NCBI GenBank assembly: GCA_020634375.1
Contig: JACKBX010000013.1
Span: 23,127 to 87,126 of the forward strand
Origin: Ardenticatenaceae bacterium
GTDB lineage: Bacteria; Chloroflexota; Anaerolineae; Promineifilales; Promineifilaceae
DNA: 64,000 bases
Direction: 5' to 3'
Position 1 is the stretch's first letter. Every line of letters begins with the position of its first letter. A program made the translations under genes and the position numbers. Of the stretch, positions 37,201 through 56,905 are shown piece by piece. The notes beneath the pieces are model-generated. The model did no database searches. It had not been told where the DNA came from and worked only from the letters and a program-made list of their open reading frames with translations.

Positions 37201-38032
37201 TCCGGTTTATGGCGTGATGATTGCGCCGGATAACACGGGTGCGGATCTGCCGGGTGCGATGGTGACGTACCAGCATACTGTGACCAACACGGGCAATGTC
37301 ACAGAAACTTTTGCGCTGGAAAGCAGTTCGAGTCAGGGTTGGGTAACGGCCGTCACGCCAAACACGCTAGATTTGCCCCCAGGATCACACGCTGATGTGA
37401 CTGTCTCAGTCACAATCCCAGCCGGGGCCACAACGGGCACCATTGATGTGACAACGGTAACGGTTTCGACAACAACGCCAGCAACGGCCGTAACTGACAG
37501 CGCTACTGATACGACGGCCGTTAATGAAGCAGGCAGTCGGGTTCTTTACTTGCCAGTCGTTCTCAAAGCCTGCGTCCCCACTGGCATTGATTTGGTTATA
37601 ACAAACATCACGGTCACACCAAATCCGCCGACTGCCGGGCAACCGGCTACTGTGTCTGTGACCATTCAAAATCAGGGAACGGTGGATATGGATCCCAGCA
37701 ATAACTTCTTCCTTGACGCCTATGTGGATCATCAGCCAGAGCCGTACCTGCCCGGTGATGGCAATCTCCAGTGGGGTGTGCAAGCCCGTGCCCTGACGGC
37801 AGGAGCCAGTGTCACATACAATGGCACGTTCACGTTTAGTGGTGGGACTCACCAAATATGGGCACAAGTGGATACAGATCGCACTGTTGATGAATGCCCC
37901 TATGAAGACAACAACACATTCGGGCCAATTATCTTGACACCCAGTGGACATAGTGGCAGCGAGACATTGCCGCCCATACACGACATTGCTGCACCACGCA
38001 GCACCCCCACACCCGTTCCATCACCGAATTAA
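25202..38032 (+). CDS. Giant (4276-aa) secreted or surface protein with seven right-handed beta-helix modules, at least 12 DUF11/Ig-like repeats and a C-terminal CARDB-like domain
   Basis: N-terminal TM/signal FLPLLALVLLAALIWL. Many GGAIY-N..N-TA beta-helix rungs. Each module closes with D..G..RP....D[IVM]G[AW]DE at nt ~26522, 28244, 29381, 30379, 31541, 32796 and 34592. Repeats of Y-x-H-T-L-T-N-T-G-N-x-x-D-T-F occur. C-terminus reads DLVITNITVTPNPPTAGQPATVSVTIQNQG. Confidence 0.9.
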   Translation: MSQSDSSPRSRVMSFQRIGYVSFLPLLALVLLAALIWLMGARPTQASPTNTIFYVTDAGSGSTCSQALPCALQTAVTNAAAGDEVHVAGGTYTDSGPAVVTVTTAITLTGGYDAANWGTSPNTQLNPTILDGESTRQVVRIEGDINPVIENFEIVNGRTGTSPYDKGAGIYNESGSPLIRNNDIHNNQATAGSVIGGGIYDGGSATIESNLIHNNSTGNNGQGGGIYIANSGGTATTVRLNEIDNNSAALGAGVALHSGEATLEANTLHHNTAVNGSVIAGGGFFNDTSSTAALYSNLFYANSGPLGGGLALTGDSTLWNNTIAENSASSQGGGIYVGSGTIQINNTIIAFNTASTNDGIHVAGGTVSGGYNNVYDDSIDPSVTFSNPVSGNPNFVSPGSPDYNYHLPPGSPDVDAGDPATPAIGVDMDGQPRPYNGIYDVGADEYGNLVAFTLEPPVINNDYQDSGTIATYHHTLHNTGNVADTYTFSCSNDQGWNVTCPSSVALSPLAQTTLSTLVEVTGTARTRARTLITAVSTTSPTISHTAVIETIVAPHPALDFTPNYSATVLPGETFTYTHMLTNTGDALETFNIELVDGSWAQILPTNNFPVDLLPGATMPIRVVIAVPATAPEGLLNETIIRASSDYDPAIAKVVTDTLIARPTVGTRYVSRDGDDTDNNCTQVDEPCNSVGHAIGQASFGDEIRIARGTYFESGIPVNDTVYLSGGWSTNFRSQGEPRDTIIDAELTAFIFDVAPGSTVRPSFSNMVLQNGASGGPGGAVFVGSSAQPAFEQVIFQHNSGTRGGAIYAASSAVVTIQKSEFINNTASDSGGALYSNSSIILVQQSGFYTNTAVSHSGAIYINGGQFVAENNLFSAHTAGGNGGALFLASGQTSLWNNTFVNNQAGGNGGAIYNNASTAVPVVNALLVSNTAVSGGAIFDNSGNLTLSYSDLWQNSLPEVSGGTLGDGILQADPLFRDEFFRLDRGSPALDHGDPNTTLTIDFEDDFRPADSGFDMGWDELVGCRAQRDGIIYSSIQEAIDAPDAVSDLIRVTGTCRGVHTINDAGGQPIQQTVHLTQTLTIQGGWNNDFTRWLNLPTYVDPEGLGRGFYVSGAVTPTLESLYIVNGDASGLGGGPASEDAGGGIYNLDSSLILQDVRILTNTAVLGGGFYNHMGTPVFHSTAPASALEQADSPFAQVAANTAVSGGGIYNYTGTLYADSMRIYSNTASSGGGIFNDAGPMVMSNTVIYANEATGSGGGIYNQAATATFWHLTVFTNTAGSNGGGFYNAAGDPLVHNTIFQSNRAVSGPAFYAASGTPDLDYNYYHDYASTPVIGANAGGSSITDNVTPPGISDPNGGDFHLEDTAVVIDIGDPLSPILKDFEGNPRPNNQGPDMGADEAVGCYVMLGDVVYGSIQAALEAAEPGETLNISGMCSGVHSYDTGGGGGGSCGGAIAVTIHLTKSVNLVGGWDAEFLNQDEVTTLDALELGRVMYIGPGVTSTIEGFDMVNGLVAGNGGAICMEDAAPTIKHNQFYSNTATNGGAIYSANSAALLTGGNRFFLNEATAGAAVYASGSTAVTVQNNFMYSNTAVSGGAFYNGDGDHNFWHNTIYSNTATSGGAVYVATDSPLIRSNIFISNTATTAGAIFAAGGATPSLGYNDYLNNTPGDLSGVAYGSGYLIEDPAFNDLIGLDFTVPFTSPVVDVGDPTLPITDDFQTNIRPSHNGFDIGADEFGGCYARVLSAPDVIYGSVQAAVDAAPAGDVVQIDGTCYGVSPHELVAGGVTVTQTLFVNKDLIIDGDWNYEDPITATLDALGRGRTLYVGSSATLTVTNLILQGGNGALGGLPAGDGGGIYVDGTLVLRDSEVLQNQAVRGGGVFNDGYVTMMDTAVHNNQATHGAGFYNNITGAGAALLTGENRLFGNIATQNGGAVYQMEGTLALDGNRLFGNYAASGGAIYLAGGNDAIDVWNNFIFNNSAGHGGGVYNLDTNGRIWHNTILGNSGDGLYSGASANNNIHSNIFDSNGGAGIHTLASSPDIVYNIVISNSTNYAGTAVAAASDPSNQSVTPVYVDRAHQDYHLHQDSPGVDEGDDDLPIAGMDHDYDGDLRPTNAAPDIGADEINTCYIRVIDPDTDEPVYFGKLQDAIEFAEDFPNPNPRVEIARGTCSGVEFRDGTYQVGYISEDLHIIGSLRHSNFSNPNDYVNPNIAALSTAIDAQGEGRVFKIAGTAVVTLEQVAMVNGNAYVAGGGNNGGAVYYPGPSRLETDTSEACQNYAENGGGYFIGSTASAYVTGAGTGSCWVALFDGDEFLQQYDYYFGNTAMSDGGGIYVSNGADVDVVNHGFGGNTAAGNGGGLYNGGQMRVINGIFSYNYALSGDGGGVYNGGGLAMYHNTVRRNTAVNLGGGIYQGGTSLTLNSSIIYSNTAANGGGLHVAGGSSAIRSYDNFNANSPNDTNDGNVGTNHISGNPLFAYGYALSQYSPNIDQADPALLLDISEGGIWADGIDFDAGNYKRPDVHPTYNDLNTSLYGYASDVGADEYWKEFGCDVLPNNDQSTIFPGEIITYSVAVFNVGYPNRLSSNYPHGYTDTITITLSSSQGWATLSGGAEQVVELDYYDDVEQDDRVYLTLTVAVPITSPFGVQEQSLVECRSASLPSRSNTSSFLTNAGLVSTVLVEPEYITQTYPGQVLTFTHYITNTGNEPNDFYLIPSAGAAGLSTASVTRIEDTDGAVYSNTLGLSDVPITIGRGEMITALLQVNVLETAASGEIATPGLIARAVDDPSIQGQVINQITISPTAGTRYVAPGGVDEGNNCLLNDQPCATVQHAVDQALDGDSILVAGGLYTHQSVITTTETLVQNVYINKSVSIIGGYSTTDNFAVSQPITNVTALDGEDGRRVIYITPGHDVTLSGLFVQNGHFPSLTNDQKGSGIYNGGSNLTIENTQVLSGTAVSGGGLYHADGDLTVHSSVFAHNDGNGSSSGSASGSGIFVVTGTVLLENNTFANNIASISGGRAPNADDGYGGAVYQEAGTLSLINNIFSQNEAGVDGFAVYISATLPIANDYNLYFNNSGGVGGADTNFSPGAHSFSGDPTFADTFFHIGPTSAAKDTGTNSIAFLAGTDFEGDPRQLNGTVDIGADERVQHASFTFVPVTQTATILPNISHVYTHTLTNNGDTADTYTLILNSTQLGDPADWDHNLTPSNFALNIGASQVVTLMITGTVPGDVDTSTITATPLSGPSVAVVDTTIISSTAGVDIGPSRAGSGEPTMTVQYQHTLTNTGNGLDSFDLHLLAGTPPGWTVTVEPAATGIVPTGGTIPFTVSVTIPAGTAVNTIHTAEIEAVSQTDGTAQDTLVDTTTVLPAYGLQLLPAAQSQSVMDGATAVYTHTLTNLGNISDTVSLTVTESLAWGASINPAAIALNPGASATVTVTVPVPPNTGGQVHVSDVTAASEGPGVTATAVDTTTVLIDNSVAIGPDHLRIVDADTQVIYQFTVTNTGNVSDTFNFTQDGGTQGWVSGFSGSSALLAPDDTTTVILTVTVPAGATPGTEDVTTVSATSTNASNSATATTRVRQLHGLAFAPNLTRTVDADSVVTYTHTLTNTGNGVDTFTFAANSSEGWAITLPPDVANLGAGLTANVVVTLTVPPGPGGITDTLRLTASSVISPAFTATVTNTTVVTLTPGALDVMIAPDNEDSGLPGELMTYYHTVTNTGTLDADFVLTAVSNQSWTTTVQPPTLSLLSGASEMVTVTVQIPSLAGDGVVDLTTVTVQDTGMIVQDTAVNTTTVTGVYSVVIAPNRSSTGIPGETLTYTHVVTNTGDFADSYSVGVSSSQSWTVTVTPDAIPLLIPGESTPVTVTVAIPSGAANGQIDVATVTAQSLNAAANDSAADTSIVQVQGEGVLLEPDHSDVGAPGEMLVYHHTLTNTGSSTLTFLLATQSSQGWVTAVTPDRVDNLAAGDSHEITVTVAIPAGAVNGTEDWTSVAATAVGEPTITDSALDHTTVEFVPPVYGVMIAPDNTGADLPGAMVTYQHTVTNTGNVTETFALESSSSQGWVTAVTPNTLDLPPGSHADVTVSVTIPAGATTGTIDVTTVTVSTTTPATAVTDSATDTTAVNEAGSRVLYLPVVLKACVPTGIDLVITNITVTPNPPTAGQPATVSVTIQNQGTVDMDPSNNFFLDAYVDHQPEPYLPGDGNLQWGVQARALTAGASVTYNGTFTFSGGTHQIWAQVDTDRTVDECPYEDNNTFGPIILTPSGHSGSETLPPIHDIAAPRSTPTPVPSPN

Positions 38033-40216: not shown

Positions 40217-40335
40217 CTCTTGGCAATGACCTACTCTCCCAGGGGGTCGCCCCCCAAGTACCATCGGCGCTGACGAGCTTAACTACCGGGTTCGGGATGG
40301 TACCGGGTGTACCCTCGTCGCTCAAATCACCAAGA
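40217..40335 (-). rRNA. rrf: 5S rRNA
   Basis: The reverse complement reads TCTTGGTGATTTGAGCGACGAGGGTACACCCGGTACCATCCCGAACCCGGTAGTTAAGC..GGGAGAGTAGGTCATTGCCAAGAG. A T-run follows. Confidence 0.85.
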
Positions 40336-40417
40336 GACCTTCTCTTAAATCACTATTTGTTAATTTACTATAATAACCAACTACAACCAACTGCCAGAAT
40401 ACCGAGTTCTCCGTACC

Positions 40418-43358
<2,941 letters not shown>

Positions 43359-43545
43359 ACACATGATACGGAGAATTCGATATTCTCGCTTTCTACGTGT
43401 TCTTCAACTTGTGTTCTTTACTATTGGTTGTGTTATTTGGTTATTAAAGTACTTTCAGCAGCTTCTATTGTGTAAGATGCTGATGAGTGCCACATATTCT
43501 TGTAGCACTCATCAATGCCCTACATCCAAATTCTAATCAAGCAAA

Positions 43546-43618
43546 TGGAGATGAGGAGACTCGAACTCCTGACCTCCGCCGTGCAAAGGCGGCGCTCTCC
43601 CAACTGAGCTACATCCCC
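43546..43618 (-). tRNA. tRNA-Ala (anticodon UGC), CCA not encoded
   Basis: Reverse complement: GGGGATGTAGCTCAGTTGGGAGAGCGCCGCCTTTGCACGGCGGAGGTCAGGAGTTCGAGTCTCCTCATCTCCA. Confidence 0.9.
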
Positions 43619-43682
43619 GGAGTTAGAAACAAAGGGTATTGATGCAACCCTCTCCTCTTTTGCCCACTCTAAGCTGTAAACA

Positions 43683-43756
43683 TGGGCCTGGTTGGACTCG
43701 AACCAACGACCTCTCCCTTATCAGAGGAACGCTCTAACCGGCTGAGCTACAGGCCC
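43683..43756 (-). tRNA. tRNA-Ile (anticodon GAU)
   Basis: Reverse complement: GGGCCTGTAGCTCAGCCGGTTAGAGCGTTCCTCTGATAAGGGAGAGGTCGTTGGTTCGAGTCCAACCAGGCCCA. Confidence 0.9.
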
Positions 43757-43867
43757 TCCTTCATACCTTTAAAAACTGAAGAGTGACAGGAAATGCATTA
43801 CCCTATCATCCTATTCGGATGATTGACCTGGGAGTTTGTATTATCTCTCGATAATACGGTACTCCAT

Positions 43868-45372
<1,505 letters not shown>

Positions 45373-45611
45373 GAAAGTTTTTTTCCGTTTGCTAACGGAA
45401 CTACTTTTATCTCTTAATCTTACAGGGTTCCGCTTCCCTGTCACTCTTCAGTTGTTAAAGGTCAATCTATCAAAGTTGCGCTGTCAAATAGGGCACAAAA
45501 AAGAACGGCCCCTTTTACTCGGAGTTACCGCTCTTTGCGATTTGCGCTACTATTATTTTGTAATGATGCCTCGCACTTGTGCGTTCGCATCTTTATCAGC
45601 GACAAGGATTT

Positions 45612-45639
45612 ATTATATCAGGCTCTTTTATATTGTCAA
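45612..45639 (-). promoter_or_regulatory. Candidate rrn promoter
   Basis: On the minus strand: TTGACA (45639-45634), 16-nt spacer, TATAAT (45617-45612). It lies about 235 nt upstream of the 16S 5-prime end. Confidence 0.5.
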
Positions 45640-45902
45640 GAGGAATTTCGCATTTTCGCAAAACTCGTTTTTTTATTTAAGAGCTTCCTTGTGGCTTGTT
45701 TTTAAGCAACAGTGGAGGATTCTAGCATACTCTTCTGTTGTGTCAAGGGCTTTTTTGATTTTGGTCAAAATCAGTTCTGGGGGACTTGATTTTAGGTATA
45801 CTAAATGTCCAATGCACACCTCTAATAAAAGTGTTCTGATATAATGTAGAGGCTCACTTTGTTTGGGGTGTCTCTCAAGGTAAAAAGCGAGTATGACATT
45901 AT

Positions 45903-46256
45903 ATGGAGTTGGTAATGGAGATAGTAATTGAATCTCTGAAAGATATACGGATCGCTTCGATAACTGGTGAAATAAATAGCCGTACTACATCTCAAATTGA
46001 GGCTGATATTCTTCCGCTCATAACACCGAATTGTAAACTTTTGTTGAATATGCGTCATGTGACATATATGTCGAGTGCTGGTTTAAGGATTTTATTGCTG
46101 CTATATAGGCAGATCAACGATCAATCCGGGCAGGTTGTGTTAGTTGGGTTGCAAGATATGATTCGAGATACGATGGCAATTACCGGCTTTTTGGATTTTT
46201 TTCAGGATTATCAAACGATTGAAGAAGGATTGGGAGCATTAGCCAATTGGTCATGA
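45903..46256 (+). CDS. STAS-domain anti-sigma-factor antagonist (SpoIIAA/RsbV-like)
   Basis: ..LLLNMRHVTYMSSAGLRILLLL..GQVVLVGL....R....ITGF has the conserved phosphorylatable Ser context (MSSAGL). Confidence 0.8.
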   Translation: MELVMEIVIESLKDIRIASITGEINSRTTSQIEADILPLITPNCKLLLNMRHVTYMSSAGLRILLLLYRQINDQSGQVVLVGLQDMIRDTMAITGFLDFFQDYQTIEEGLGALANWS

Positions 46257-48364
46257 AACGAGTTGATTTTTATCCTACACATAGACACGGTGATTTTTTA
46301 CTGCGTGCAGGACGGCCGTATCCGTTCGGCGCGTCTTTTGTTCCGGGGGGTGTGAATTTTGCTATTTTCTCGCGTTACGCATCAGTTTGTGCCCTTGTGC
46401 TTTTCGAGAAAGGTGAACTTCAGCCACTGGTAGAAATCCCTTTCCCTACTGAGTTTCAGATTGGGCATGTCTTTGCCATGATTGTTTTCGATCTAGATTA
46501 CGAAAACATCGAATATGGCTACCGTATGGATGGCTTATATCGCCCTCATGAAGGACACCATTTTAACCAGGAAACGATTTTATTAGACCCATATGCGCGT
46601 GCGGTGAACGGCCGTTCCCAATGGGCCGCACAACCAACACCAAACAACCCCTACCCCCACCGTGCATTATTACCATACGATGATTTTGATTGGGTCGATG
46701 ACCATCCCCTCGAAAAACCTCCTGAAGACCTAATTGTCTACGAGATGCATGTGCGTGGGTTCACGCGCCATCCTTCAAGCGGAGCGAAGTACGCGGGTAC
46801 CTTTGCTGCTATTCGGGAAAAGATCCCTTATTTGAAGGACTTGGGTGTTAACTGCATTGAACTCATGCCGATTTTTGAATTCGACGAACTTGAAAATAAA
46901 TTCATTAGCCCACTCACTGGCGCTCCTCTTGTGCAGTATTGGGGGTATGACTCCATCAACTTTTTTGCACCCAAAGCCGGATATGCAGCCACAGGCCGTT
47001 ATGGTATGCAAATGGATGAATTCAAAGCCCTGGTGAAGGAACTGCATAAGCATGATATTGAGGTGTTTCTGGATGTGGCCTTCAATCACACAGGAGAAGG
47101 TGGGGAAGACGGCCGTACCATTTCCTATCGTGGCATAGACAACAAAACTTACTACATGTTGCGCCCCGATGGCAGCTACCAAAACTTTAGCGGCTGTGGT
47201 AACACTATGAACTGTAATAACCCTGTTGTCCGCAATATGGTTTTGGACTGTTTGCGTTATTGGGTGGCAGAATATCACATTGATGGCTTTCGCTTTGACC
47301 TCGCCTCCATTTTGGGGCGCGACAGCGCGGGACGACCTCTTGCTAACCCTCCCCTATTAGAAGCGATGGCCCACGATCCCGTCTTGGGCAAAACTAAACT
47401 TATTGCCGAAGCCTGGGATGCTGCTGGCCTTTATCAAGTTGGCAGTTTTCCCGCATACGGCCGTTGGGGAGAGTGGAATGGCAAATACCGCGACTGCTTG
47501 CGGCGATTCCTAAAAGGAGACGAAGGGCAGGTAGCGGAAATCGCTCAACGCATACAAGGCTCACCTGACCTATATACGGGGCGCGGCACAACCGCTTCCA
47601 TCAATTTCGTTACAGCTCACGACGGCTTCACATTGGCCGACCTATTCTCCTACAACGAAAAGCATAATCTTGCCAATGGTGAAGACAACCACGACGGGCA
47701 AAACGACAATTACAGTTGGAACTGCGGTTGGGAAGGCTCGACCGATAACCCAGAAATTAATGCCTTGCGGCAGCGCATGATCAAAAATGCCATCGCCATT
47801 TTGCTGGTTAGCCAGGGCGTGCCCATGATTCTCATGGGGGATGAAGTCGGTCACACAAAAAACGGCAACAACAACACCTACGGTCACGATAACGAACTCA
47901 ACTGGTTTGATTGGACACGCTTAGAAAGCAATGCCGAGTTATACCGCTTCTTTAGAAATTGCATAACCTTCCGCAAGGTTCACACTGCCTTGCGAAATCA
48001 GGCTCATTTTCGTCATGAGGATTATGTAGGCAGTGGCTACCCAGATATTTCCTTTCACGGTGTAGAGGCATGGCAACCCGATTGGGCTTATCACAGCCAC
48101 ACACTTGCTTTTATGTTAGATGGCGAACATGCTCGGGGTGGGCTTGAACCGGATGATACAATATATGTAGCGATGAACATGCATTGGGAAGATCATCAGT
48201 TCTCGTTACCACGTCTGCCCGTGCATCAGAAGTGGCACACGTTTGTCAACACGAGCGTGCCCCATCCAAATGATATTTGCACACCAGACAAAGAACCTGT
48301 ACTGGCTAATCAGAAACATCTACTCATTGCTGCGCGATCTGTGGTTATCCTCGTAGGCCGGTAA
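46253..48364 (+). CDS. glgX: Glycogen debranching enzyme GlgX (isoamylase-type GH13)
   Basis: YPFGASF..GGVNFAIFS, YEMHVRGFT, YWGYD, DVAFNHTGEG, GFRFDLASILGR, IAEAWDA, FVTAHDGFTL and MGDEVGHTKNGNNNTY. Its ATG overlaps the STAS stop (ATGA at 46253-46256). Confidence 0.9.
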   Translation: MKRVDFYPTHRHGDFLLRAGRPYPFGASFVPGGVNFAIFSRYASVCALVLFEKGELQPLVEIPFPTEFQIGHVFAMIVFDLDYENIEYGYRMDGLYRPHEGHHFNQETILLDPYARAVNGRSQWAAQPTPNNPYPHRALLPYDDFDWVDDHPLEKPPEDLIVYEMHVRGFTRHPSSGAKYAGTFAAIREKIPYLKDLGVNCIELMPIFEFDELENKFISPLTGAPLVQYWGYDSINFFAPKAGYAATGRYGMQMDEFKALVKELHKHDIEVFLDVAFNHTGEGGEDGRTISYRGIDNKTYYMLRPDGSYQNFSGCGNTMNCNNPVVRNMVLDCLRYWVAEYHIDGFRFDLASILGRDSAGRPLANPPLLEAMAHDPVLGKTKLIAEAWDAAGLYQVGSFPAYGRWGEWNGKYRDCLRRFLKGDEGQVAEIAQRIQGSPDLYTGRGTTASINFVTAHDGFTLADLFSYNEKHNLANGEDNHDGQNDNYSWNCGWEGSTDNPEINALRQRMIKNAIAILLVSQGVPMILMGDEVGHTKNGNNNTYGHDNELNWFDWTRLESNAELYRFFRNCITFRKVHTALRNQAHFRHEDYVGSGYPDISFHGVEAWQPDWAYHSHTLAFMLDGEHARGGLEPDDTIYVAMNMHWEDHQFSLPRLPVHQKWHTFVNTSVPHPNDICTPDKEPVLANQKHLLIAARSVVILVGR

Positions 48365-48385
48365 ATGAGAAGGAAGGATTGCAAG

Positions 48386-48811
48386 ATGAAACCGTTAACG
48401 ATTCCCGGTAAATTGGAATCGCTGGATTCGGTAACAAGTTATGTACTGCAAGCTGCGACACGTGCCGGTTTGGACTATCGGGCCAGTTATCGTCTGCGCC
48501 TGGCAGTGGATGAAATTACAACAAATATCATTTTGCATGGATTAGACGATGAGCAAGCGGCTGGAACGATTACGATGTCGGCCGAAATGGATGAAGCCTA
48601 TCTGACCATTCACATTGAAGATACGGGTACAGGGTATAACCCTTATGAAGCTCTGCCCCCAGATAAGATGTGGGGACCAATAGAAACACGAAGATTGGGA
48701 GGATGGGGCATTTATTTAGCCATGTGGGGGGTTGATCAATATCATTATTCGCGGATACGGGAATGTAACCGCAGCACACTTAAGGTGCAACGGCCGTGTA
48801 AGTATCATTGA
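48386..48811 (+). CDS. Anti-sigma regulatory factor / Ser-Thr protein kinase (RsbW/SpoIIAB-like HATPase). An alternative start at 48365 abuts the glgX stop.
   Basis: N-box VDEITTNIILHG, G1 EDTGTGYNP, G2 GGWGIYL. GAAGGAAGGA RBS before 48386. Confidence 0.8.
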   Translation: MKPLTIPGKLESLDSVTSYVLQAATRAGLDYRASYRLRLAVDEITTNIILHGLDDEQAAGTITMSAEMDEAYLTIHIEDTGTGYNPYEALPPDKMWGPIETRRLGGWGIYLAMWGVDQYHYSRIRECNRSTLKVQRPCKYH

Positions 48812-48851
48812 AAGCGAGTCCTCATACCTTCTTTGAAAAGGTGTTTTAAGA

Positions 48852-50654
48852 ATGACAATGCACACAACCCACCTATTCGTTGTTGATCCCGATGAGGAGC
48901 GACTTACTAAACTGATAAAGTTGTTAGATGAATGCGGCTATACAGCACAAACAACGGCCGTTCCTGAACACATCCTCTCCCTGCCAGAACCAAACACAAT
49001 AGACATCGTTTTTCTCCACATCACAGAAGCAGCAGAAAATAATTTTGCACTACTGCGGCAATTCCAGGCTCATGCCGAGCTGCGCCACCTGCCCATCATC
49101 ATTTACGGAATCAAAGATGACCTGATCGACATGGACCATGCCATTGCAGCCGGGGCGACAGATTATCTGACCTTACCCACAACGGCCGTTCTCCTCAAAA
49201 CCCGCGTTCGTACCAGCTTAGAAAAGCGCCTCTTCGCCGAACAAGCCACCTGGTATCTGCGCGAATTCAACGAAATGGAAAAGCTGGCCGATGATCTGCG
49301 GCTAAAAATCTTACCGTTAGGCATTGCCCTTTCTACCGAGAAAAATTTCGATCATCTACTAGAACAAATCGTGATCGAAGCCATGACCATCTGCAATGCC
49401 GACATGGGCGCATTATATTTGCGCACAGAAGATGACTATCTGCGTTCCGCCATCATGCGCACAAACTCGTTAAATTTATTCTACGGTGGCAGCACAGGCA
49501 CAGAAGTCCCTGCCCTCCCCCTTCCCCTTTACAACCAGGACGGTCAACCCAATCACAGCGACGCGATGACCTACGCCATTCTGGCCCATGAAACCGTCAA
49601 CATTGCCAATATATATAATGTAGGGCGCTTCAATTTTTCCAACACAAAAAAGTTTGATCAAACACACCAATATCGCACCGTATCTTGCCTCACCGTCCCC
49701 TTGTTGAATCACAGAGCAATTGGCGTATTACAACTATGCAACACCCGTGACGAACAAGGCAGTTACGTGCCATTTCAAGCGTATCATCAACTTGTAGCTG
49801 AATCCCTGGCATCGCAGGCAACCGTCGTGCTGCACAACCACATCCTCTCAAAACGACATGAGGAATTGCTGGGGTATCAACGAGAATTAGAAATTGCTCG
49901 CCGGTTGCAAGAAGGATTCTTGCCTAAAGAACTCCCTCAATTGCCCAATTGGGAATTGGCGGCACGACTGCAACCGGCACGCATTGTATCCGGTGATTTT
50001 TATGATGTCCTGACGCTGCCAGACGGCCGTATTGCCCTTGTGATAGCAGACGTATGTGACAAAGGAGTAGTAGCCGCCCTGTTCATGGCTCTGATACGCA
50101 GCCTACTGCGTGCCTATTTGCAGCAGTATTACTTCTTGCTAGAGCAATCCACGATAGGCTCCCCCCAACCCTTTCCAAACCCCGCCGCGGCACTCACCAA
50201 TACAACCAGTTTAACGAACAGCTACATTGCACAGCAGCATAGTCAAAATCATATGTTTGCCACCCTGTTTTTTGGCATTCTTGATTTAGACAGCAGTTCA
50301 TTAACCTATGTCAATGCCGGACACAACCCCCCCCTCCTCTTAAAATCAGACGGCCGTATCCTAACACTTGGTTCAACAGGCCCAGCCGTTGGGCTGCAAG
50401 CCGAAGCTCTCTACCACGCAAAAGCCCTGACTTTGGAGCCGGGTGATTTACTTTTTGCCTATACAGACGGCATCATTGATGCCCGCGACCCGGAAAAACG
50501 CTTTTTCACCCTGGAACGATTAAAAGGGCTGCTCAAAAATAATGGGGAACCTGTAGACGTGCTGCTCAACAACATCGAAACGGCCGTCCACAACTACATC
50601 GACGGCACAGGCCAATTTGATGACATCACCATGCTCGCCCTCAAACGCCAATAA
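48852..50654 (+). CDS. Receiver-like domain, GAF and PP2C (SpoIIE/RsbU-type) phosphatase
   Basis: N-terminal CheY-like fold, a central GAF-like region (MGALYLRT..), and the C-terminal PPM motifs SGDFYDV, ADVCDKGVVAALFMA, NAGHNPP, YTDGIIDA and DDITMLAL. Confidence 0.85.
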   Translation: MTMHTTHLFVVDPDEERLTKLIKLLDECGYTAQTTAVPEHILSLPEPNTIDIVFLHITEAAENNFALLRQFQAHAELRHLPIIIYGIKDDLIDMDHAIAAGATDYLTLPTTAVLLKTRVRTSLEKRLFAEQATWYLREFNEMEKLADDLRLKILPLGIALSTEKNFDHLLEQIVIEAMTICNADMGALYLRTEDDYLRSAIMRTNSLNLFYGGSTGTEVPALPLPLYNQDGQPNHSDAMTYAILAHETVNIANIYNVGRFNFSNTKKFDQTHQYRTVSCLTVPLLNHRAIGVLQLCNTRDEQGSYVPFQAYHQLVAESLASQATVVLHNHILSKRHEELLGYQRELEIARRLQEGFLPKELPQLPNWELAARLQPARIVSGDFYDVLTLPDGRIALVIADVCDKGVVAALFMALIRSLLRAYLQQYYFLLEQSTIGSPQPFPNPAAALTNTTSLTNSYIAQQHSQNHMFATLFFGILDLDSSSLTYVNAGHNPPLLLKSDGRILTLGSTGPAVGLQAEALYHAKALTLEPGDLLFAYTDGIIDARDPEKRFFTLERLKGLLKNNGEPVDVLLNNIETAVHNYIDGTGQFDDITMLALKRQ

Positions 50655-50667
50655 CCAGCTCCCCATC

Positions 50668-51186
50668 TCAAATCGGAAAAATCAAACAAGTCGTCGTGCC
50701 GTGTGCGGCTAATTTCCCATCGCCATCGATTAAATACCCTTCTGCCGTTGCCACACGCCGCCCTACGCTGATCACCTTCCCCTCTGCCCGCACCAACCCG
50801 GACTTTTCGGTTAACGGCCGTACAAAATTCACCTTAATCTCCACCGACGTATACCCCAGCCCTGCCGCCAGCGTCGTATGCACGGCGCAGGCCATCGCCG
50901 AATCCAACAACGTAGCGATATACCCCCCATGCACCGTGCCCAACGGATTGTAATGGCGCAAATCCGGCGTACCTGCAAACACCACCCGCCCTTCTTCCAC
51001 CTCCACCAGGCTAAAATCCAGCGTTTGCGCAATGGGCGCTGGCGGGAAACGGCCGTCCAACAACCGCCGAAACACCTCAATCCCCGATAGCTCCCGCATC
51101 TCCGCCAACGGTATCAACTGAAAACCCTCTGCCATTTTCACTGCAACCTCCATCAAATTTCTCCCCACCATACCCCACCAATTCAC
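50668..51186 (-). CDS. PaaI/hotdog-fold thioesterase. The true start is probably internal, near 51135-51153.
   Basis: ..PLGTVHGGYIATLLDSAMACAV.. and ..EGKVISVGRRVATAEG.L.. are typical PaaI-family motifs. Confidence 0.75.
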   Translation of the reverse strand: MNWWGMVGRNLMEVAVKMAEGFQLIPLAEMRELSGIEVFRRLLDGRFPPAPIAQTLDFSLVEVEEGRVVFAGTPDLRHYNPLGTVHGGYIATLLDSAMACAVHTTLAAGLGYTSVEIKVNFVRPLTEKSGLVRAEGKVISVGRRVATAEGYLIDGDGKLAAHGTTTCLIFPI

Positions 51187-51229
51187 AATTTACAATTGAC
51201 AATTAACAATTGACCATTGACAATTCCCC
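51181..51229. repeat. Heptamer tandem repeat (ATTNACA x7)
   Basis: ATTCACA ATTTACA ATTGACA ATTAACA ATTGACC ATTGACA ATTCCCC, in the divergent intergenic region. Confidence 0.7.
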
Positions 51230-51230
51230 C

Positions 51231-52127
51231 ATGTTTTTCCGCTTCAACCATCAAACCCGCCTCAAACTACTTCTATTGCCTTACCTGCTTGGCATCCTCA
51301 TCCTCGTCATCATTCCCGCCATTCTCTCCTTCTCACTCGCCTTCTTCCGCTACGATGCGCTCTCTCCTCCCCAATACATCGGCAATCTGAACTTTATCCT
51401 TGCCTACACCGACGAGCTTTTTGCCCTCAGCGTGCAGAATGCTGTTGCCCTGGTGCTGTTACCCGTGCCCCTGCGCGTGATGGGGGCGTTTTTATTGGCG
51501 AGATTGTTGCAGCGACACGGCCGTTTCCTCAACACATTCCGCGCCGCCATCTACCTGCCCAGCATCATCCCCACCGCCGCCTACGCCCTCGCCTGGCTGT
51601 GGATTCTCAACCCCCTTTTCGGCCCCGTCAACCTCATCCTCAAAGCTGTTGGCCTCAATGCCCCCGCCTGGTTCAGCGATCCCCAATGGGCTAAACCCGG
51701 CCTCATCCTCATGTCCCTCTGGCAAATCGGTGAGGGCTTCCTCGTCAGCCTCGCCGCTTTACAGGACATTCCCGCCAACCTGGAAGATGCCGCCGCGCTG
51801 GATGGCGCAACCCCGGCACAATTTCTACGCCACGTCACCTTACCCATCATGGCCCCCATTCTGCTCCTCCTTAGCTTCCGCGACGCCGTCATCACCCTGC
51901 AAGATTCTTTTACCACCATCCTCATCACCACTGGCGGCGGCCCCTACTACACGACCTATACTTTGCCCCTTTTCATCTACGAACAGGGCTTCGACCTCCT
52001 CTCCTTTGGCACGGCCAGCGCGGCCCTGTGGGTGATGTACGCCCTCACCGGCCTCATCGTCCTCTTCCTCTACATCATCGCCCGCCAATGGAACATAGGA
52101 ACCACCGATGAAACCTTCGTCATTTAA
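51231..52127 (+). CDS. Carbohydrate ABC transporter permease (MalF/CUT1-like)
   Basis: Six TM helices and an EAA-like loop (DAAALDGATPAQFLRHVTLP). The start is set at the ATG after the heptamer repeat. Confidence 0.85.
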   Translation: MFFRFNHQTRLKLLLLPYLLGILILVIIPAILSFSLAFFRYDALSPPQYIGNLNFILAYTDELFALSVQNAVALVLLPVPLRVMGAFLLARLLQRHGRFLNTFRAAIYLPSIIPTAAYALAWLWILNPLFGPVNLILKAVGLNAPAWFSDPQWAKPGLILMSLWQIGEGFLVSLAALQDIPANLEDAAALDGATPAQFLRHVTLPIMAPILLLLSFRDAVITLQDSFTTILITTGGGPYYTTYTLPLFIYEQGFDLLSFGTASAALWVMYALTGLIVLFLYIIARQWNIGTTDETFVI

Positions 52128-52977
52128 TCAACCGCAAAGAACGCGAAGAGCGCAAAGAAAAAATGCCTCTTCCTTTACGCTCTTTGCGCCCTTTGCGGTT
52201 AAATCCCTCCGCCTCTTCACCGCCATCCTCTTTTTGCTGCCCGTCTTTTGGATGATCGCCGCCTCGCTGCACCCGCGTGGCGTGCCCCTGCCGCAAACCC
52301 TGCAATTACTGCCGCAGCAGCCAACTCTGGAAAATTACGGCCGTATCTTCCACCTCATCCCCATCACCCGCTTCACCCTCAACTCGCTGATTGTGGTGGC
52401 AACGGCCGTTCCCCTCACCCTCATCACCAGCTCCTGGGCCGGATACAGCATGTCCCAACTACCGCGCCCCAGCCAGCGCCGCCTCATCCTCCTCTCCCTG
52501 GCCATCCTCATGGTTCCCGGCATCGCCCTTTGGTCAACCCGCTTCCTCATCTACAAACAACTCGGCTGGACAGGCTCCCTCATCGCCCTCATCGCCCCCG
52601 CCTTCATGGGCAGCAGCCCCTTCTACGTCCTCATGTTCTACCGCGCCTTCCGCCGCATCCCCCACGCCATCTACGACGCCGCCCGCCTCGACGGCGCAGG
52701 CGTGCTGCAAACCTGGGCCGCCATCGCCCTGCCCATCGCCCGGCCAACGGCCGTTGGCGTCGCCCTCCTCTCCTTCATCCTCTACTGGGGCGACTTCACC
52801 AGCCCCCTCCTCTACCTCAGCTCCGAAAAATGGTACACCCTACCCATCGCCCTCCAGCTTTTACAGCAAATGGGGCGTTCCGACTGGCCCCTACTCATGG
52901 CCGCCGCAGTGATAGCAACGGCCGTGCCCACCCTCCTCTTCCTCCTCCTCCAACCCTACTTCCACAAACCGCAGTAA
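52108..52977 (+). CDS. Carbohydrate ABC transporter permease (MalG/CUT1-like)
   Basis: EAA-like loop YDAARLDGAGVLQTWAAIALP. Overlaps the upstream permease by 20 nt. Confidence 0.8.
   Translation: MKPSSFNQPQRTRRAQRKNASSFTLFAPFAVKSLRLFTAILFLLPVFWMIAASLHPRGVPLPQTLQLLPQQPTLENYGRIFHLIPITRFTLNSLIVVATAVPLTLITSSWAGYSMSQLPRPSQRRLILLSLAILMVPGIALWSTRFLIYKQLGWTGSLIALIAPAFMGSSPFYVLMFYRAFRRIPHAIYDAARLDGAGVLQTWAAIALPIARPTAVGVALLSFILYWGDFTSPLLYLSSEKWYTLPIALQLLQQMGRSDWPLLMAAAVIATAVPTLLFLLLQPYFHKPQ
52130..52200. repeat. Long imperfect hairpin of the repeat-unit hairpin design, embedded in the first ~30 codons of the permease gene
   Basis: AACCGCAAAG..GCGCAAAGA AAAAA.. TCTTTGCGC C CTTTGCGGTT (10-bp plus 9-bp stems). 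Confidence 0.6.
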
Positions 52978-52994
52978 CCCATGCCCAGAAGCCT

Positions 52995-53225
52995 CATCCA
53001 CCTGGACAACAGCTTCATCCACCCGGATGAATAGCCCGTCCTTATAGATAAAGCCACAATCCATATAGACAAACTATTCATCCACCTGGATAAACACCCC
53101 ATCCATCTGGCTGAAAAGTTTATCCTTATAGACCAATCCGCCGTCCATATAGATAACCTATTCATCCACATAGCCCGGCATTCCGTCCACCTGGATGAGC
53201 GCTCCCTCCACACGACCAAACCAAC
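52995..53225. repeat. Eleven tandem units with exact 21-bp phasing, organised as an 84-bp higher-order repeat
   Basis: The (C/T)(A/G/C)TCC(A/T) cores start at 52995, 53016, 53037, 53058, 53079, 53100, 53121, 53142, 53163, 53184 and 53205. Unit classes are CATCCACCTGGAY and GTCCWTATAGAYA, in the pattern I-I-II-II. Confidence 0.8.
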
Positions 53226-53286
53226 AACGCAAACCCGGCAGGGGCGTGTATACTTGCCCCACTCGAATCAATCAAAAGGAGAGCTT

Positions 53287-54570
53287 ATGCACCGTCTCAA
53301 ATTCATAATATTGCTCCCATTCCTCAGCATCCTGGCCGCCTGCAACAATCCAAAATCACAAACCATTTCCTTCATGATTTCCGGCGATCCTGCCGAACGA
53401 CAAGCCTACCTCGATCTCGTCACTGCCTTTGAAGAAAGCCACCCCGACATTCACATCGACGTCACCCACATCCCCTCTGCCAGCGATTACCGCACCAAAC
53501 TTGCCACCGACTTCGCCGCCGGAACACCCGCCGATGTCACCCTCATGAACTACCGCCGCTTCGCCGCCTTCGCCGCTAACAATTTATTGCAGCCCATCGA
53601 CCCCTATCTCCAAGACAGCAGCCTCATTCAGCCCGAAGACTTCTACCCCATCAGCATCGAAGCCTTCACCTGGCAAGGCGAGATTATGTGCCTGCCACAA
53701 AACATCTCCAGCCTGGTGGTCTATTACAACCAGGATTTATTTAACGCCGCCGGCCTGCCCTATCCGCCCGACCAATGGACTTGGGACAACTTTGTTGCTA
53801 CAGCCAAAGCCCTCACCCAAGATACCAATGGCGATGGCACAATTGACCAATACGGCCTCGGCGTTGACCCCTCGCTCTATCGCCTATCCGCCTTCATCTG
53901 GCAAAACGACGCCCCGATGGTGGATGATCCGCAAGACCCCACACGCCTCACTCTCACCCGCGTGCCCACCCTGGAAGCACTGCAATGGTTTGTGGACTTG
54001 CGGCAGGTACACGGCGTCGTGCCTGATCGTGTAGAAGAGGCCGCGCAGGACAGCGAAAGCCGCTTTGTCGCGGGCACAACGGCCATGTTTTTGGACAGCC
54101 GTCGCGGCACACCCACATACCGCGAAATTGAGAGCTTTGCCTGGGATGTGGCCCCGCTGCCGCAAGGCAAAGTGGCGGCGGGCATCCTGCACAGCGACGC
54201 TTACTGCCTCTCTGCGACCACCGAAAACAAAGAGGCGGCGTGGGCGTTTATTGAGTTCGCCAATTCGGTAGAAGGGCAGACGCTCATTGCCCAAAGCGGG
54301 CGCACCGTCCCCTCCCTGATCGCGGTGGCCGAATCCAACGTCTTTTTGGACCCCACAAAGCCTCCTAGCCGCAGCCAGGTTTGGCTGGATACGGCCGTTA
54401 CCTTACGTGCCGTCCCCGTCATCAGCACTTGGGAGGAGATTGAAAAGACCGCCAGCGCAGAAATCGAGCGGGCCTTCTACGGCGACATCACCGCTGCCGA
54501 GGCAGCGCAATTGGCCGACCAGCGTACAGAGGAGTATTTCTTGCTGGGTGTGAACGCAGCACGGCCGTAA
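53287..54570 (+). CDS. Carbohydrate ABC transporter substrate-binding lipoprotein (CUT1)
   Basis: AAAGGAGAG RBS. Lipobox LSILAACNN. Family-1 SBP features are present. Confidence 0.85.
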
Positions 54571-54574
54571 CCTA

Positions 54575-54632
54575 TGCTATAATGTCCCCAAACATCATGC
54601 AGATTGGTTCAATCTTTCAGATTGAACCAATC
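54575..54632 (+). promoter_or_regulatory. Extended -10 promoter (TGCTATAAT) followed by a perfect 14-bp inverted repeat (operator or 5-prime UTR hairpin) upstream of ppk2
   Basis: TGC-TATAAT at 54575-54583. GATTGGTTCAATCT TTC AGATTGAACCAATC at 54602-54632. Confidence 0.4.
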
Positions 54633-54651
54633 ATCTCAGCGGAGGGACACT

Positions 54652-55680
54652 ATGAGCAATCACGATCACGATCCAGACGATACGGCCGTTGACACAACGG
54701 CTGCCGAGCCAATGGTCGAAGCGCCATCGGCTGCTGAGAAAGAGGTGGAAGGGAAACGGCCGTTCTCCGACCTCAAACCCATCATCACCGTCGGCCCAGA
54801 AAGCGAAGACAGGCGCATCGAACTCAACCGCGACATCCTCAGCGACATCAGCTCCATCCCCGAACACCTGCGCCCCGCGCAGCCCCCCAAATACACCAAA
54901 AAAGGCAAACTCGACAACCAATATTACGAACACGAACTGGCCCGTCTACAAGAAGAGCTGGTCAAGCTGCAATATTGGGTCAAAGAAGCCGGTCTGCGCG
55001 TCGTCATCGTCTTTGAAGGGCGCAGCGGTGCGGGCAAAGGCGGCGTGATCAAACGCATTTTAGAGCGCACTAACTCACGCATCATGCGCGTCATCGCCCT
55101 GCCCGTGCCCAGCGACCGCGAACGCACGCAGTGGTGGTTCCAAAAATACGTGGCGCACCTGCCCGCCGCCGGTGAAATCGTGCTGTTAGACCGCAGTTGG
55201 TACAACCGCGCCCTCGTTGAGCCGGTGATGGGCTTCTGCACCGAAGAGCAGTACCGCGAATTCCTGCGCTCCTGCCCCCAATTTGAGCGCATGTTGGTAC
55301 GCTCCGGCATCATTTTGCTCAAATATTGGTTCTCCGTCAGCAACGAAGAACAGGAGCGCCGATTCCAGGCCCGCATCTTCACGCCGACCAAACGCTGGAA
55401 GCTCAGCCCAATGGATTTGGAAGACCGGCGGCGCTGGGTAGAATACTCGAAAGCCAAAGACACCATGTTTGCCTACACCGACATCAAACAAGCGCCCTGG
55501 TACGTGGTCAACGCCGACGACAAAAAACGCGCCCGCCTCAACTGCATCACGCACATCCTCAGCCAAATCCCCTACGAAGACATCACCCCCGAACCAGTGC
55601 AGTTACCTCCCCGCGAAGGCGACAAAGGCTACATCCGCCCGCCCATTCACGAACAAACCTTCGTCCCCGAAGTGTATTAA
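54652..55680 (+). CDS. ppk2: Polyphosphate kinase 2
   Basis: VIVFEGRSGAGKGGVIKRI (Walker A), DRSWYNRA, the lid region ..W.LSPMDLE.R..W..Y. GGAGGG RBS. Confidence 0.9.
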   Translation: MSNHDHDPDDTAVDTTAAEPMVEAPSAAEKEVEGKRPFSDLKPIITVGPESEDRRIELNRDILSDISSIPEHLRPAQPPKYTKKGKLDNQYYEHELARLQEELVKLQYWVKEAGLRVVIVFEGRSGAGKGGVIKRILERTNSRIMRVIALPVPSDRERTQWWFQKYVAHLPAAGEIVLLDRSWYNRALVEPVMGFCTEEQYREFLRSCPQFERMLVRSGIILLKYWFSVSNEEQERRFQARIFTPTKRWKLSPMDLEDRRRWVEYSKAKDTMFAYTDIKQAPWYVVNADDKKRARLNCITHILSQIPYEDITPEPVQLPPREGDKGYIRPPIHEQTFVPEVY

Positions 55681-55740
55681 AGAGATTAGAGATTAGAGAT
55701 TGGCAACCGCCCCGTCTCTAATCTTCAATCTCTAATCTCC
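55681..55740 (+). terminator. Heptamer-unit hairpin (AGAGATT x3 and its complement)
   Basis: AGAGATTAGAGATTAGAGATTGG..loop..TCTCTAATCTTCAATCTCTAATCTC. It starts immediately after the ppk2 stop. Confidence 0.6.
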
Positions 55741-55744
55741 CCCT

Positions 55745-56905
55745 ATGTCTAAAAAACGCATCACCTTCATCGTGTTCTTTCTGCTTTGCGGCGTGTTGGT
55801 CACGGCCGTTTACCTCTACCGCCGCCTCAATCCCCCCGTCAATTTGGTGGGGTCACTGGGCGGTGGCGATATCGCCAGCCTGACGCTGCCCCCCGGTTTT
55901 GAGGCCAATGTCTTTGCCAGCGGCCTCAGCGGGCCGCGCTTCATTGCCTTTGGGCCAGACGGCGCGTTGTATGTGGCGGACAGGGGCAACGGCCGTATCG
56001 CCACCCTCCCCGACACCAACCAAGACGGCGTGGCCGACGCTATCCACACCTTTGCCGACGGCCTGACACAGCCGCACAGCCTGACATACCACGAAGGGGC
56101 GTGGTACGTGGGCGTGCCCACCGGCGTCATTCGTTTGGTCGATGAAAATGGTGATGGCACAGCCGATTCTCGTGAAACGCTAATTGACGACTACCCCACA
56201 AACGGGCACAGTACGCGCACGGTCTTGTTTTTGACGGACGGCCGTATGGTCGTCTCCGTCGGTTCAAGCTGCAACGTCTGCGAAGAGGACGATCCGCGCC
56301 GTGCCGCCGTTCTCGTCTACGATGACGGCAATGCGACCAACGAGCAGATTTTTGCCAGCGGGCTGCGTAATGCGGTGGGGCTGGCCCTGCATCCGCAAAC
56401 CGGCGAATTGTGGGCCACGAATAACGGCCGTGACATGCTCGGCGACAACACCCCACCCGAAACGGTGTACATTGTACGCGAAGGGGAAGCCTACGGCTGG
56501 CCTGTTTGCCACAGCGGCGACATCATTGACCCCGACTTGGGCCACGCTGGGGACTGCGACGGCGTGACTGCGCCCATCGTGGAAATGCAAGCACATTCCG
56601 CACCATTGGGGCTAGCCTTTTACACCGGCACTCAATTCCCGGCAGAGTACCAGGGGGATTTGTTCGTCGCCTTTCACGGCTCATGGAACCGCCGCGAACC
56701 GACCGGCTACAAAGTGGTGCGCATCCCGCTAAATGGCAGCACGCCCACCGGCGCAGTCGAGGATTTTGCAACGGGCTGGCTGTCTCTGGAGGAGAATGTG
56801 GTGTACGGCCGTCCCGTTGGTCTCGCCGTTGGCCCCGATGGGGCGCTGTACGTCAGCGATGATAAAGGCGGATACATTTACCGCATCAGTTACCGGGGTT
56901 CTTGA
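55745..56905 (+). CDS. PQQ-dependent sugar (glucose/sorbosone) dehydrogenase-like beta-propeller
   Basis: N-terminal TM anchor. GPDGALYVADRGNGRI, ..GLRN.VGLA.HP.TGELWATNNGRD, HSAPLGLAFY and GPDGALYVSDD. Confidence 0.8.
   Translation: MSKKRITFIVFFLLCGVLVTAVYLYRRLNPPVNLVGSLGGGDIASLTLPPGFEANVFASGLSGPRFIAFGPDGALYVADRGNGRIATLPDTNQDGVADAIHTFADGLTQPHSLTYHEGAWYVGVPTGVIRLVDENGDGTADSRETLIDDYPTNGHSTRTVLFLTDGRMVVSVGSSCNVCEEDDPRRAAVLVYDDGNATNEQIFASGLRNAVGLALHPQTGELWATNNGRDMLGDNTPPETVYIVREGEAYGWPVCHSGDIIDPDLGHAGDCDGVTAPIVEMQAHSAPLGLAFYTGTQFPAEYQGDLFVAFHGSWNRREPTGYKVVRIPLNGSTPTGAVEDFATGWLSLEENVVYGRPVGLAVGPDGALYVSDDKGGYIYRISYRGS

Follow-up and report, generated by a model that had tools for sequence, protein, structure and literature searches.

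A STAS-kinase-phosphatase cassette with an embedded glycogen debranching enzyme gene in Chloroflexota, and the STAS protein as a possible direct partner of GlgX

What does a partner-switching module control when it contains a gene for a glycogen debranching enzyme and none for a sigma factor? This question is raised by a locus in a 64,000-nucleotide stretch of an Ardenticatenaceae bacterium (Chloroflexota; NCBI GenBank assembly GCA_020634375.1, contig JACKBX010000013.1, positions 23,127 to 87,126 of the forward strand). We refer to this whole stretch as the window and use its numbering throughout. At 45903-50654 on the + strand, four tightly packed and co-oriented open reading frames (ORFs) encode a STAS antagonist, an isoamylase-type GlgX, an RsbW/SpoIIAB-like serine kinase and a phosphatase. 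An initial annotation had proposed that either glycogen catabolism is an output of this module or GlgX is its direct binding or phosphorylation target. We report three new observations that bear on the question: a linkage of this type of STAS protein (STAS1) to GlgX across phyla, natural STAS1=GlgX fusions and a GlgX motif that tracks STAS1. Based on these, we see an even chance that the kinase and phosphatase set the phosphorylation of STAS1 at Ser58 and that STAS1 acts directly on GlgX. A literature search found no paper on a STAS-GlgX link, which is not proof of absence. The features of the cassette are the following.

45903-46256, + strand: STAS ORF (Pfam STAS PF01740, E=3e-19)
45915-46256, + strand: STAS1 gene, encoding a single-domain STAS protein of the anti-sigma-factor-antagonist type, 113 amino acids
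46074-46076, + strand: codon of the predicted phospho-acceptor serine, Ser58 in the 117-residue and Ser54 in the 113-residue numbering, within Y-M-S-S-A-G-L-R
46253-48364, + strand: glgX ORF, isoamylase-type alpha-1,6-glucan debranching enzyme (predicted activity), 703 amino acids; Pfam CBM_48, Alpha-amylase and isoamylase C-terminal domain (ISOA1-3_C)
46259-46282, + strand: motif R-V-D-F-Y-P-T-H at the GlgX N-terminus (residues 3-10), a candidate for STAS1-associated docking or regulation
48365-48811, + strand: kinase ORF (Pfam HATPase_c_2 PF13581, E=2e-17)
48386-48811, + strand: gene for the RsbW/SpoIIAB-like GHKL serine kinase, 141 amino acids
48852-50654, + strand: gene for the sensor phosphatase, 600 amino acids, with a pseudo-receiver (Response_reg-like in Pfam; ~48873-49226), a GAF domain (~49341-49835) and a SpoIIE/PP2C domain (PF07228, E=2e-43; ~50019-50648)

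The gene content and junctions of the initial annotation all held up, and only two start codons were amended. The ATG of glgX overlaps the STAS stop codon TGA within an ATGA at 46253-46256, as read from the sequence. The glgX stop codon TAA (48362-48364) is abutted by an ATG at 48365 (TAA-ATG at 48362-48367), and a Shine-Dalgarno stretch, AGAAGGAAGGA, lies upstream of a further ATG at 48386. Between the end of the kinase gene at 48811 and the start codon (ATG) of the phosphatase gene at 48852 are 40 nucleotides. The STAS gene most likely starts at the ATG at 45915 rather than at 45903 (117 amino acids), because a GGAG lies 7 nucleotides upstream and an annotated 113-amino-acid protein from an Ardenticatenaceae metagenome-assembled genome (MAG) is 100% identical (P0001). 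Similarly, the kinase most likely starts at 48386 rather than at 48365 (148 amino acids), since a 141-amino-acid protein annotated in an Ardenticatenaceae MAG is 100% identical to it (P0174); 21 nucleotides then separate glgX from the kinase gene. The spacing of the four genes is tight enough to allow co-transcription and translational coupling, and a terminator scan of the cassette found no convincing internal terminator.

We examined each protein for the features of a working partner switch. The STAS protein belongs to the STAS1 type, scoring 154.6 bits against the hidden Markov model (HMM) of STAS1 and 57.0 bits against that of STAS2, the second STAS protein found in many related loci. It can be aligned to SpoIIAA (1TH8), and its best solved relative is PDB entry 4HYL (E=1e-24). 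The latter is a 117-amino-acid 'Stage II sporulation protein' whose YMSSAGLR motif is identical to that of the window STAS1; a crystal structure of the STAS1 family may already exist in this entry. Ser58 aligns with the serine of the SpoIIAA motif 'FMDSSGL' at the position replaced by alanine in the 1TID variant, which we take to be the phosphorylated serine. The serine of SAGLR is kept in 44 of the 45 GlgX-linked STAS1 proteins and in 26/26 STAS2 proteins.

The kinase gave no match in a phmmer search of PDB sequences. Its AlphaFold2 model was of good quality (predicted local distance difference test score, pLDDT, 85.6; predicted template modelling score, pTM, 0.81), and the best Foldseek matches to this model were SpoIIAB (1TIL, 1L0O), RsbW (6M37) and UsfX (8IH8), with template modelling scores of 0.7-0.78. 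Identity to the Bacillus kinases is ~17-19%. The ATP-binding boxes (N, G1 and G2) are conserved as E..N, D.G and GG.G.

The phosphatase matched the Pfam families SpoIIE (2e-43) and GAF (9e-11), while its Response_reg match of 29.8 bits fell slightly below the cut-off. Its closest PDB relative is the REC-PP2C protein 3EQ2 (6e-17), which we take to be P. aeruginosa RssB and to which SGDFYD, ADVCDKG and TDGIID align. These three motifs and DDIT, which carry the metal-binding aspartates of PP2C phosphatases, are all retained. The receiver, in contrast, is degenerate: aligned to CheY, D57 is replaced by histidine, T87 by glycine and K109 by leucine, and K109 is kept in 0/20 aligned phosphatases (19 orthologues and the window protein). 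We therefore rejected the phosphatase as a two-component output acting through its receiver, as the phospho-acceptor aspartate, Thr87 and Lys109 are missing. Considering that this domain is a pseudo-receiver, the signal more likely enters via the GAF domain or protein contacts.

GlgX resembles other GH13_11 enzymes such as E. coli GlgX, Sulfolobus TreX and plant ISA1, with which it shares the CBM48 domain, the (beta/alpha)8 catalytic barrel, the C-terminal domain and the catalytic triad. Among its PDB relatives are plant ISA1 (9xvi, 5e-194), TreX (2vnc, 3e-158) and GlgX (7u39, 7e-145). GH13 regions I-IV and the Asp/Glu/Asp triad are intact, and each of the motifs DVxFNH, GFRFDLA, AEAWD and HDGF shows 95% or higher conservation among 81 homologues. 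A catalytically dead GlgX was rejected on account of these conserved residues. Unlike the other GH13_11 enzymes, the clade of the window GlgX adds an N-terminal R-I-D-x-Y-P-T-H and a dedicated STAS partner gene; Slr1857, the nearest member that has been characterised, showed no activity in vitro. Thus, as far as sequence can tell, all four proteins keep the residues expected for activity, namely the STAS1 serine, the kinase boxes, the PP2C aspartates and the GlgX triad. Domains, motifs and the kinase fold agree that this is a genuine STAS, RsbW-like kinase and PP2C module with a GlgX gene inside, as first proposed.

The combination of a cassette lacking a sigma factor gene with an embedded GlgX is not a new arrangement; the same layout is decades old. 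The icfG cluster of Synechocystis PCC 6803, known since the 1990s, comprises slr1856 (STAS), slr1857 (GlgX2), slr1859 (STAS), slr1860 (the PP2C phosphatase IcfG) and slr1861 (an RsbW-like kinase) (PMC12329169, PMC11619594, PMC8670252). In both clusters, the STAS gene is immediately upstream of an isoamylase-type GlgX gene, an RsbW-like kinase and a PP2C phosphatase are encoded in the same co-oriented cluster, and there is no sigma gene. The GlgX N-terminus also agrees, being M-x-R-I-D in the family and MERIDI in Slr1857, as taken from a published primer sequence (PMC4911114). Matched by layout and published descriptions, the window STAS1, kinase and phosphatase map to the biochemically tested Slr1856, Slr1861 and IcfG. 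Slr1861 phosphorylates both Slr1856 and Slr1859, of which IcfG dephosphorylates Slr1856 and not Slr1859 (PMC12329169, PMC11619594). Partner exchange that depends on phosphorylation has been demonstrated solely for homologues from Synechocystis, namely Slr1861, Slr1856 and Ssr1600 (PMC12329169).

The two clusters also differ in several respects. The window has one STAS gene and misses the Slr1859-type STAS2, and its kinase gene precedes the phosphatase gene, whereas the slr numbering implies the reverse order in Synechocystis. N-terminal to its PP2C domain, the window phosphatase carries a pseudo-receiver followed by a GAF domain. Upstream of the window cassette is a divergent rRNA operon and no Slr1855-like epimerase gene, and the host belongs to a Chloroflexota lineage of the non-photosynthetic type. 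The window cassette is thus a reduced, one-STAS variant of the icfG-type cluster in Chloroflexota.

To determine how widely STAS1 and GlgX are linked, we next used GlgX of the window as query against a single genome from each GTDB species. This yielded 80 loci at 55-82% identity, whose six-frame ORFs were searched with the four window proteins; 76 loci had enough upstream DNA. A STAS1-type gene was found at most 400 nucleotides upstream of GlgX in 45 of the 76 loci, and one further locus is a fusion. The gaps between STAS1 and GlgX have a median of 13 nucleotides, with 34 of the 45 at 30 nucleotides or less and seven overlapping or abutting. The survey of STAS-glgX-kinase synteny that the initial annotation had called for was thus strongly positive. 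A kinase was found in 43 loci, and a distinct second STAS gene (STAS2) lies between GlgX and the kinase in 26. The most constant pair is STAS1 and GlgX, which persists in seven loci with no kinase or PP2C gene within 6 kb (L020, L024, L025, L030, L032, L034 and L066). In a reverse check, 3/3 distant STAS1 homologues were encoded directly upstream of a GlgX gene. The gene order recurs in dozens of species-level genomes and is far beyond chance.

The STAS1-linked loci span at least seven phylum-level labels. By record label they include Chloroflexota (28), Cyanobacteriota (6) and Bacteroidota (3, including the isolates Spirosoma terrae and Larkinella arboricola), in addition to Planctomycetota, Deinococcota, Vecturithrix and a few MAGs of uncertain placement. 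In two cyanobacterial loci with a Slr1855-like epimerase gene upstream (L081 and L083), STAS1 is 48-50% identical to the window STAS and the gene order is the same. The Spirosoma neighbourhood is likewise similar to that of Synechocystis, with genes for DJ-1/PfpI, an epimerase-like protein, STAS1, GlgX, STAS2 and the kinase, and a 44% identical homologue of the window kinase is part of an epimerase-STAS1-GlgX-STAS2-kinase cluster. GlgX had been described as inserted into a canonical module. The survey revises this description, as the widespread form is STAS1-GlgX-(STAS2)-kinase-PP2C and it is the window lineage that lost STAS2.

In a neighbour-joining tree of GlgX, the STAS-linked genes form one large clade that mixes phyla, outside of which is an unlinked Chloroflexota clade. 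A nested clade of filamentous cyanobacteria lost the STAS link. The window GlgX falls into a sub-clade of Ardenticatenales/Promineifilales that lost STAS2, and its closest relatives (L001-L010) are all without STAS2. The cassette has a G+C content of 47.9% (36-53% at third codon positions), compared with 57.9% (65-79%) for the downstream genes at 50668-56905. The low G+C content of the cassette and the phylum-mixing tree suggest that it may move horizontally as a unit.

Two further observations concern the composition of these loci. A GlcNAc-2-epimerase-like gene for 600-670 amino acids (PF07221, Slr1855 type), often accompanied by DJ-1/PfpI, lies directly 5' of STAS1 in cyanobacteria and Spirosoma (Bacteroidota), for example at L029 3569-5578, L081 5157-6977 and L083 4496-6313; the window has no such gene. 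The conserved unit thus extends beyond the partner-switch genes themselves. A Geminocystis locus (L064 8178-9869) contains a duplicated C-terminal GlgX fragment together with STAS2.

The second line of evidence is the GlgX N-terminus. STAS1-linked loci share the consensus M-x-R-I/V-D-x-Y-P-T-H. Among 76 GlgX proteins, 45 were linked and had the motif, one was linked without it, four were unlinked with it and 26 were unlinked without it, in raw counts that include shared ancestry. The motif is accordingly absent or decayed in 26 of the 30 unlinked proteins, and it has decayed in STAS1-less lineages such as the filamentous cyanobacteria and the loci L011, L016 and L053. It is still present after the linker in STAS=GlgX fusions.

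These fusions are the third line of evidence. On a Thermoguttaceae chromosome (L063), a single ORF of 830 amino acids combines STAS_2 (35.7 bits) with the CBM_48, catalytic and C-terminal domains. At least ten further protein clusters with STAS and CBM_48 are 45-63% identical to it and include MAGs of Gemmataceae and Methylomirabilis; the fusion entries are L063, P0121-P0124, P0126-P0129, P0131 and P0150. Their STAS domains are of the STAS1 type, with 43-79 bits against the STAS1 HMM versus 12-29 bits against the STAS2 HMM. One fusion gene lies between genes for phosphofructokinase and glycogen phosphorylase and another in a pentose-phosphate gene cluster, which places GlgX in glycogen catabolism. 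The fusions are real but rare and constitute a small minority. Two fusion genes are irregular: the one at L093 8001-13046 is broken by a DDE transposase, and the one at L091 8001-10436 is called as two genes (499 and 304 amino acids).

Other known systems provide a frame for these findings. The window module is similar to RsbV-RsbW-RsbU/P-SigB and SpoIIAA-SpoIIAB-SpoIIE-SigF of Bacillus in its phospho-serine STAS protein, its GHKL kinase of the SpoIIAB/RsbW fold and its PP2C phosphatase with a variable N-terminal sensor. It differs from them in lacking a sigma gene in the operon and in the embedded metabolic gene that is translationally coupled to STAS. A precedent for the principle comes from Anabaena PCC 7120, where RsbW-like kinases and HenR, a PP2C phosphatase, switch All4160, a glycosyltransferase with a STAS domain (PMC13555669). 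The All4160/HenR/Alr3423 system and the present one have in common a kinase/phosphatase pair acting on a STAS domain that controls a carbohydrate-active enzyme, and the STAS=GlgX fusions have the same architecture in principle. However, All4160 is a glycosyltransferase for envelope polysaccharide as opposed to a GH13 debranching enzyme, and its STAS domain is fused to the enzyme, whereas STAS and GlgX of the window are encoded by separate, overlapping genes and the regulation of GlgX is a proposal. The phosphorylation state of a STAS protein is also the output in V. fischeri SypA/SypE and Bordetella BtrV/BtrW, which have a non-sigma or unknown target (PMC8256260). Whereas the targets in those systems are unknown or regulatory, synteny and fusion here point to a specific enzyme.

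In the mechanism that we propose, whose enzyme-substrate relations are assigned by homology to the Synechocystis biochemistry, the RsbW-like kinase would phosphorylate Ser58 of STAS1 and the pseudo-receiver-GAF-PP2C phosphatase would strip the phosphate. A metabolite is probably sensed through the GAF domain, which we propose because the receiver domain cannot be phosphorylated. STAS1 would be the dedicated partner of the GlgX encoded downstream, probably through the N-terminal R-I/V-D-x-Y-P-T-H, and in one of its two states would bind GlgX near the N-terminus and control debranching. Its phosphorylation state would thereby switch the debranching of glycogen or alpha-glucan on or off by carbon status. 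Both the STAS1-GlgX contact and its direction are what we infer here. The earlier idea of GlgX as a direct partner of the module gains from the STAS1=GlgX fusions and from the N-terminal motif that covaries with STAS1; the part of it in which GlgX is phosphorylated does not, since nothing suggests such a modification.

Several observations weigh against a direct action of STAS1 on GlgX. Common descent inflates the correlation between motif and STAS1. Fusion of adjacent genes is an easy step, and when the fusion was used as query against 1.84 billion cluster representatives (HMMER), the top 150 matches were nearly all plain GlgX, with about five of the 150 aligning to its STAS part (P0288, P0124, P0306, P0307 and P0132). 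Roughly half of the fused STAS domains have glycine at the phospho-serine position and no kinase is encoded nearby; phospho-control is therefore not universal. An AlphaFold2 model of the natural fusion P0128 (truncated at 499 amino acids, 56-row alignment) reached a pLDDT of 61 and a pTM of 0.35, with a disordered linker, and is uninformative on the STAS-GlgX interface. In Synechocystis, recombinant GlgX2 (Slr1857) was inactive in a coupled assay and deletion of slr1856 or glgX2 has no reported phenotype. The remaining points concern the sigma factor and the existence of the module without GlgX, and are taken up with the explanation that they favour.

The strongest alternative, which we consider unlikely though clearly ahead of the other two, is co-expression only: a classical switch would act on a distant SigC-like sigma factor, and GlgX would be an operon passenger without contact to STAS1, coupled to the module in its synthesis but not in its activity. 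The initial annotation was right that no sigma gene is linked to the cassette. Searches with E. coli FliA, RpoS and RpoE (phmmer) found no ORF of the sigma-70 family in the window, nor did Pfam scans of most of its other long ORFs (chosen at 110 amino acids or more), and a sigma-like ORF was present in the flanks of just 2/86 related loci (5-8 kb on each side where the contig allows). A sigma output is nevertheless not precluded by this, because Slr1861 is an anti-SigC factor although sigC lies elsewhere in the Synechocystis genome, and it also phosphorylates the orphan STAS protein Ssr1600 (PMC12329169). A purely transcriptional output would therefore suffice to explain such a cluster. Moreover, the icfG cluster sits within an slr1852-1862 operon, including the GlcNAc-2-epimerase-like Slr1855, that is co-regulated as a whole (PMC8670252). 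A STAS, GAF-PP2C and kinase operon without GlgX in a Spirulina MAG (L090 5460-7731; kinase 49% identical to that of the window) shows that, in filamentous cyanobacteria, the module can occur independently of the enzyme, and the poor model of the only fusion modelled lends no support to an interface. What co-expression leaves unexplained are the recurrent STAS1=GlgX fusions and the joint loss of STAS1 and the GlgX motif. Nor does it account for the persistence of STAS1, and not of the kinase or STAS2, beside GlgX in different phyla, including at loci that lack a nearby kinase.

Direct action and a sigma factor may also coexist, as the kinase may sequester a sigma factor encoded elsewhere by analogy with Slr1861 and SigC. 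Holding a distant sigma factor in this way would couple the enzymatic to the transcriptional output.

A second alternative, decidedly less probable than co-expression, makes GlgX the input of the switch. As a sensor of glucan status, GlgX would change its hold on STAS1 upon binding glycogen or limit dextrin, which would alter the amount of STAS1 available to trap the kinase and so the activity of a distant sigma factor. The linkage, fusions and motif apply equally to this explanation, and it would fit a Synechocystis GlgX2 without debranching activity or deletion phenotype, whose function was called elusive in a 2025 preprint. Against it, every catalytic residue is conserved to 95% or more within the STAS-linked clade, which argues for a working enzyme, and fusions occur in glycogen-catabolic operons by glycogen phosphorylase with no kinase or phosphatase nearby. 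Least probable of all is that the kinase has GlgX in place of a sigma factor as its partner and would bind and inhibit or phosphorylate GlgX, with unphosphorylated STAS1 competing it away: the kinase gene directly follows glgX in the window lineage and the near absence of sigma genes agrees with this, but the invariant neighbour of GlgX is STAS1 and not the kinase, most lineages have STAS2 interposed between GlgX and the kinase, STAS1-GlgX pairs and fusions exist without a nearby kinase, and STAS folds are the only known substrates of RsbW-type kinases.

We also examined how the cassette is bordered and what might drive its expression. Upstream is the divergent rRNA operon (40218-45374, - strand), which is complete with 16S, tRNA-Ile-GAT, tRNA-Ala-TGC, 23S and 5S. 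Two near-perfect sigma-70 promoter matches 5' of the 16S gene (45612-45746, - strand; TTGACA-16-TATAAT and TTGACA-16-TAGAAT, with TG-extended -10 elements) are probably the rRNA promoters P1 and P2. An ORF of 151 amino acids at 45389-45844 (+ strand) was rejected as a gene, as it overlies the rRNA leader and promoters. A consensus promoter scan found no strong + strand promoter before the cassette. One candidate element, which the scan did not list and which lacks a good -35 hexamer, was recognised by eye.

45837-45845, + strand: candidate extended -10 element TGaTATAAT, ~55-70 nucleotides 5' of the STAS start codons

The downstream border is a convergent 4HBT thioesterase gene (50668-51186). 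Past it are genes for a sugar-type ABC transporter (two BPD_transp_1 permeases and SBP_bac_1) followed by a polyphosphate kinase 2 gene (51210-55680, + strand). No second STAS, kinase, PP2C or GlgX gene was found within the 64-kb window.

Elsewhere in the window, purH (10164-11945, - strand) is split by an in-frame TAA that is followed at once by an ATG and by a GGAGG-preceded ATG. The upstream ORF holds MGS and the start of AICARFT and the downstream ORF the rest of AICARFT. An assembly error, a pseudogene and a true, translationally coupled split gene are all conceivable. An ORF of 4276 amino acids (25202-38032, + strand) with right-handed beta-helix/NosD repeats and many Ig-like domains (NPCBM_assoc, CARDB, fn3_6) probably encodes a surface or secreted adhesin-like protein. 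Another of 1843 amino acids (10-5541, + strand), which may begin upstream of the window, has three EAD7 effector-associated domains and a dynein-type AAA_5 ATPase and resembles components of NTPase-based conflict or signalling systems. At the window edge, a serine recombinase (resolvase) gene (63078-63710, - strand) in a stretch of 44% G+C (62001-64000) may mark a mobile-element border.

Returning to direct control of GlgX by STAS1, its broader form is that STAS1 is a phosphorylation-controlled regulatory subunit of GlgX2-type enzymes from cyanobacteria to Chloroflexota, Bacteroidota, Planctomycetota and Deinococcota, and that the output of the switch is a glycogen-catabolic enzyme instead of, or besides, a sigma factor. 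We advance this tentatively and rate its chances at somewhat below even. The icfG cluster has been tied to carbon metabolism since 1994, but what GlgX2 does within it was never accounted for. Cross-phylum conservation, fusions and the co-varying motif now provide a testable explanation for this 'elusive' enzyme and indicate that the system is not specific to cyanobacteria. If STAS1 acts on GlgX as proposed, recombinant Synechocystis GlgX2 would have been inactive on its own for want of its partner Slr1856. Bacterial glycogen breakdown is usually ascribed to control of gene expression and of phosphorylase, so a serine-phosphorylation switch on the debranching enzyme would, if true, be a new control point.

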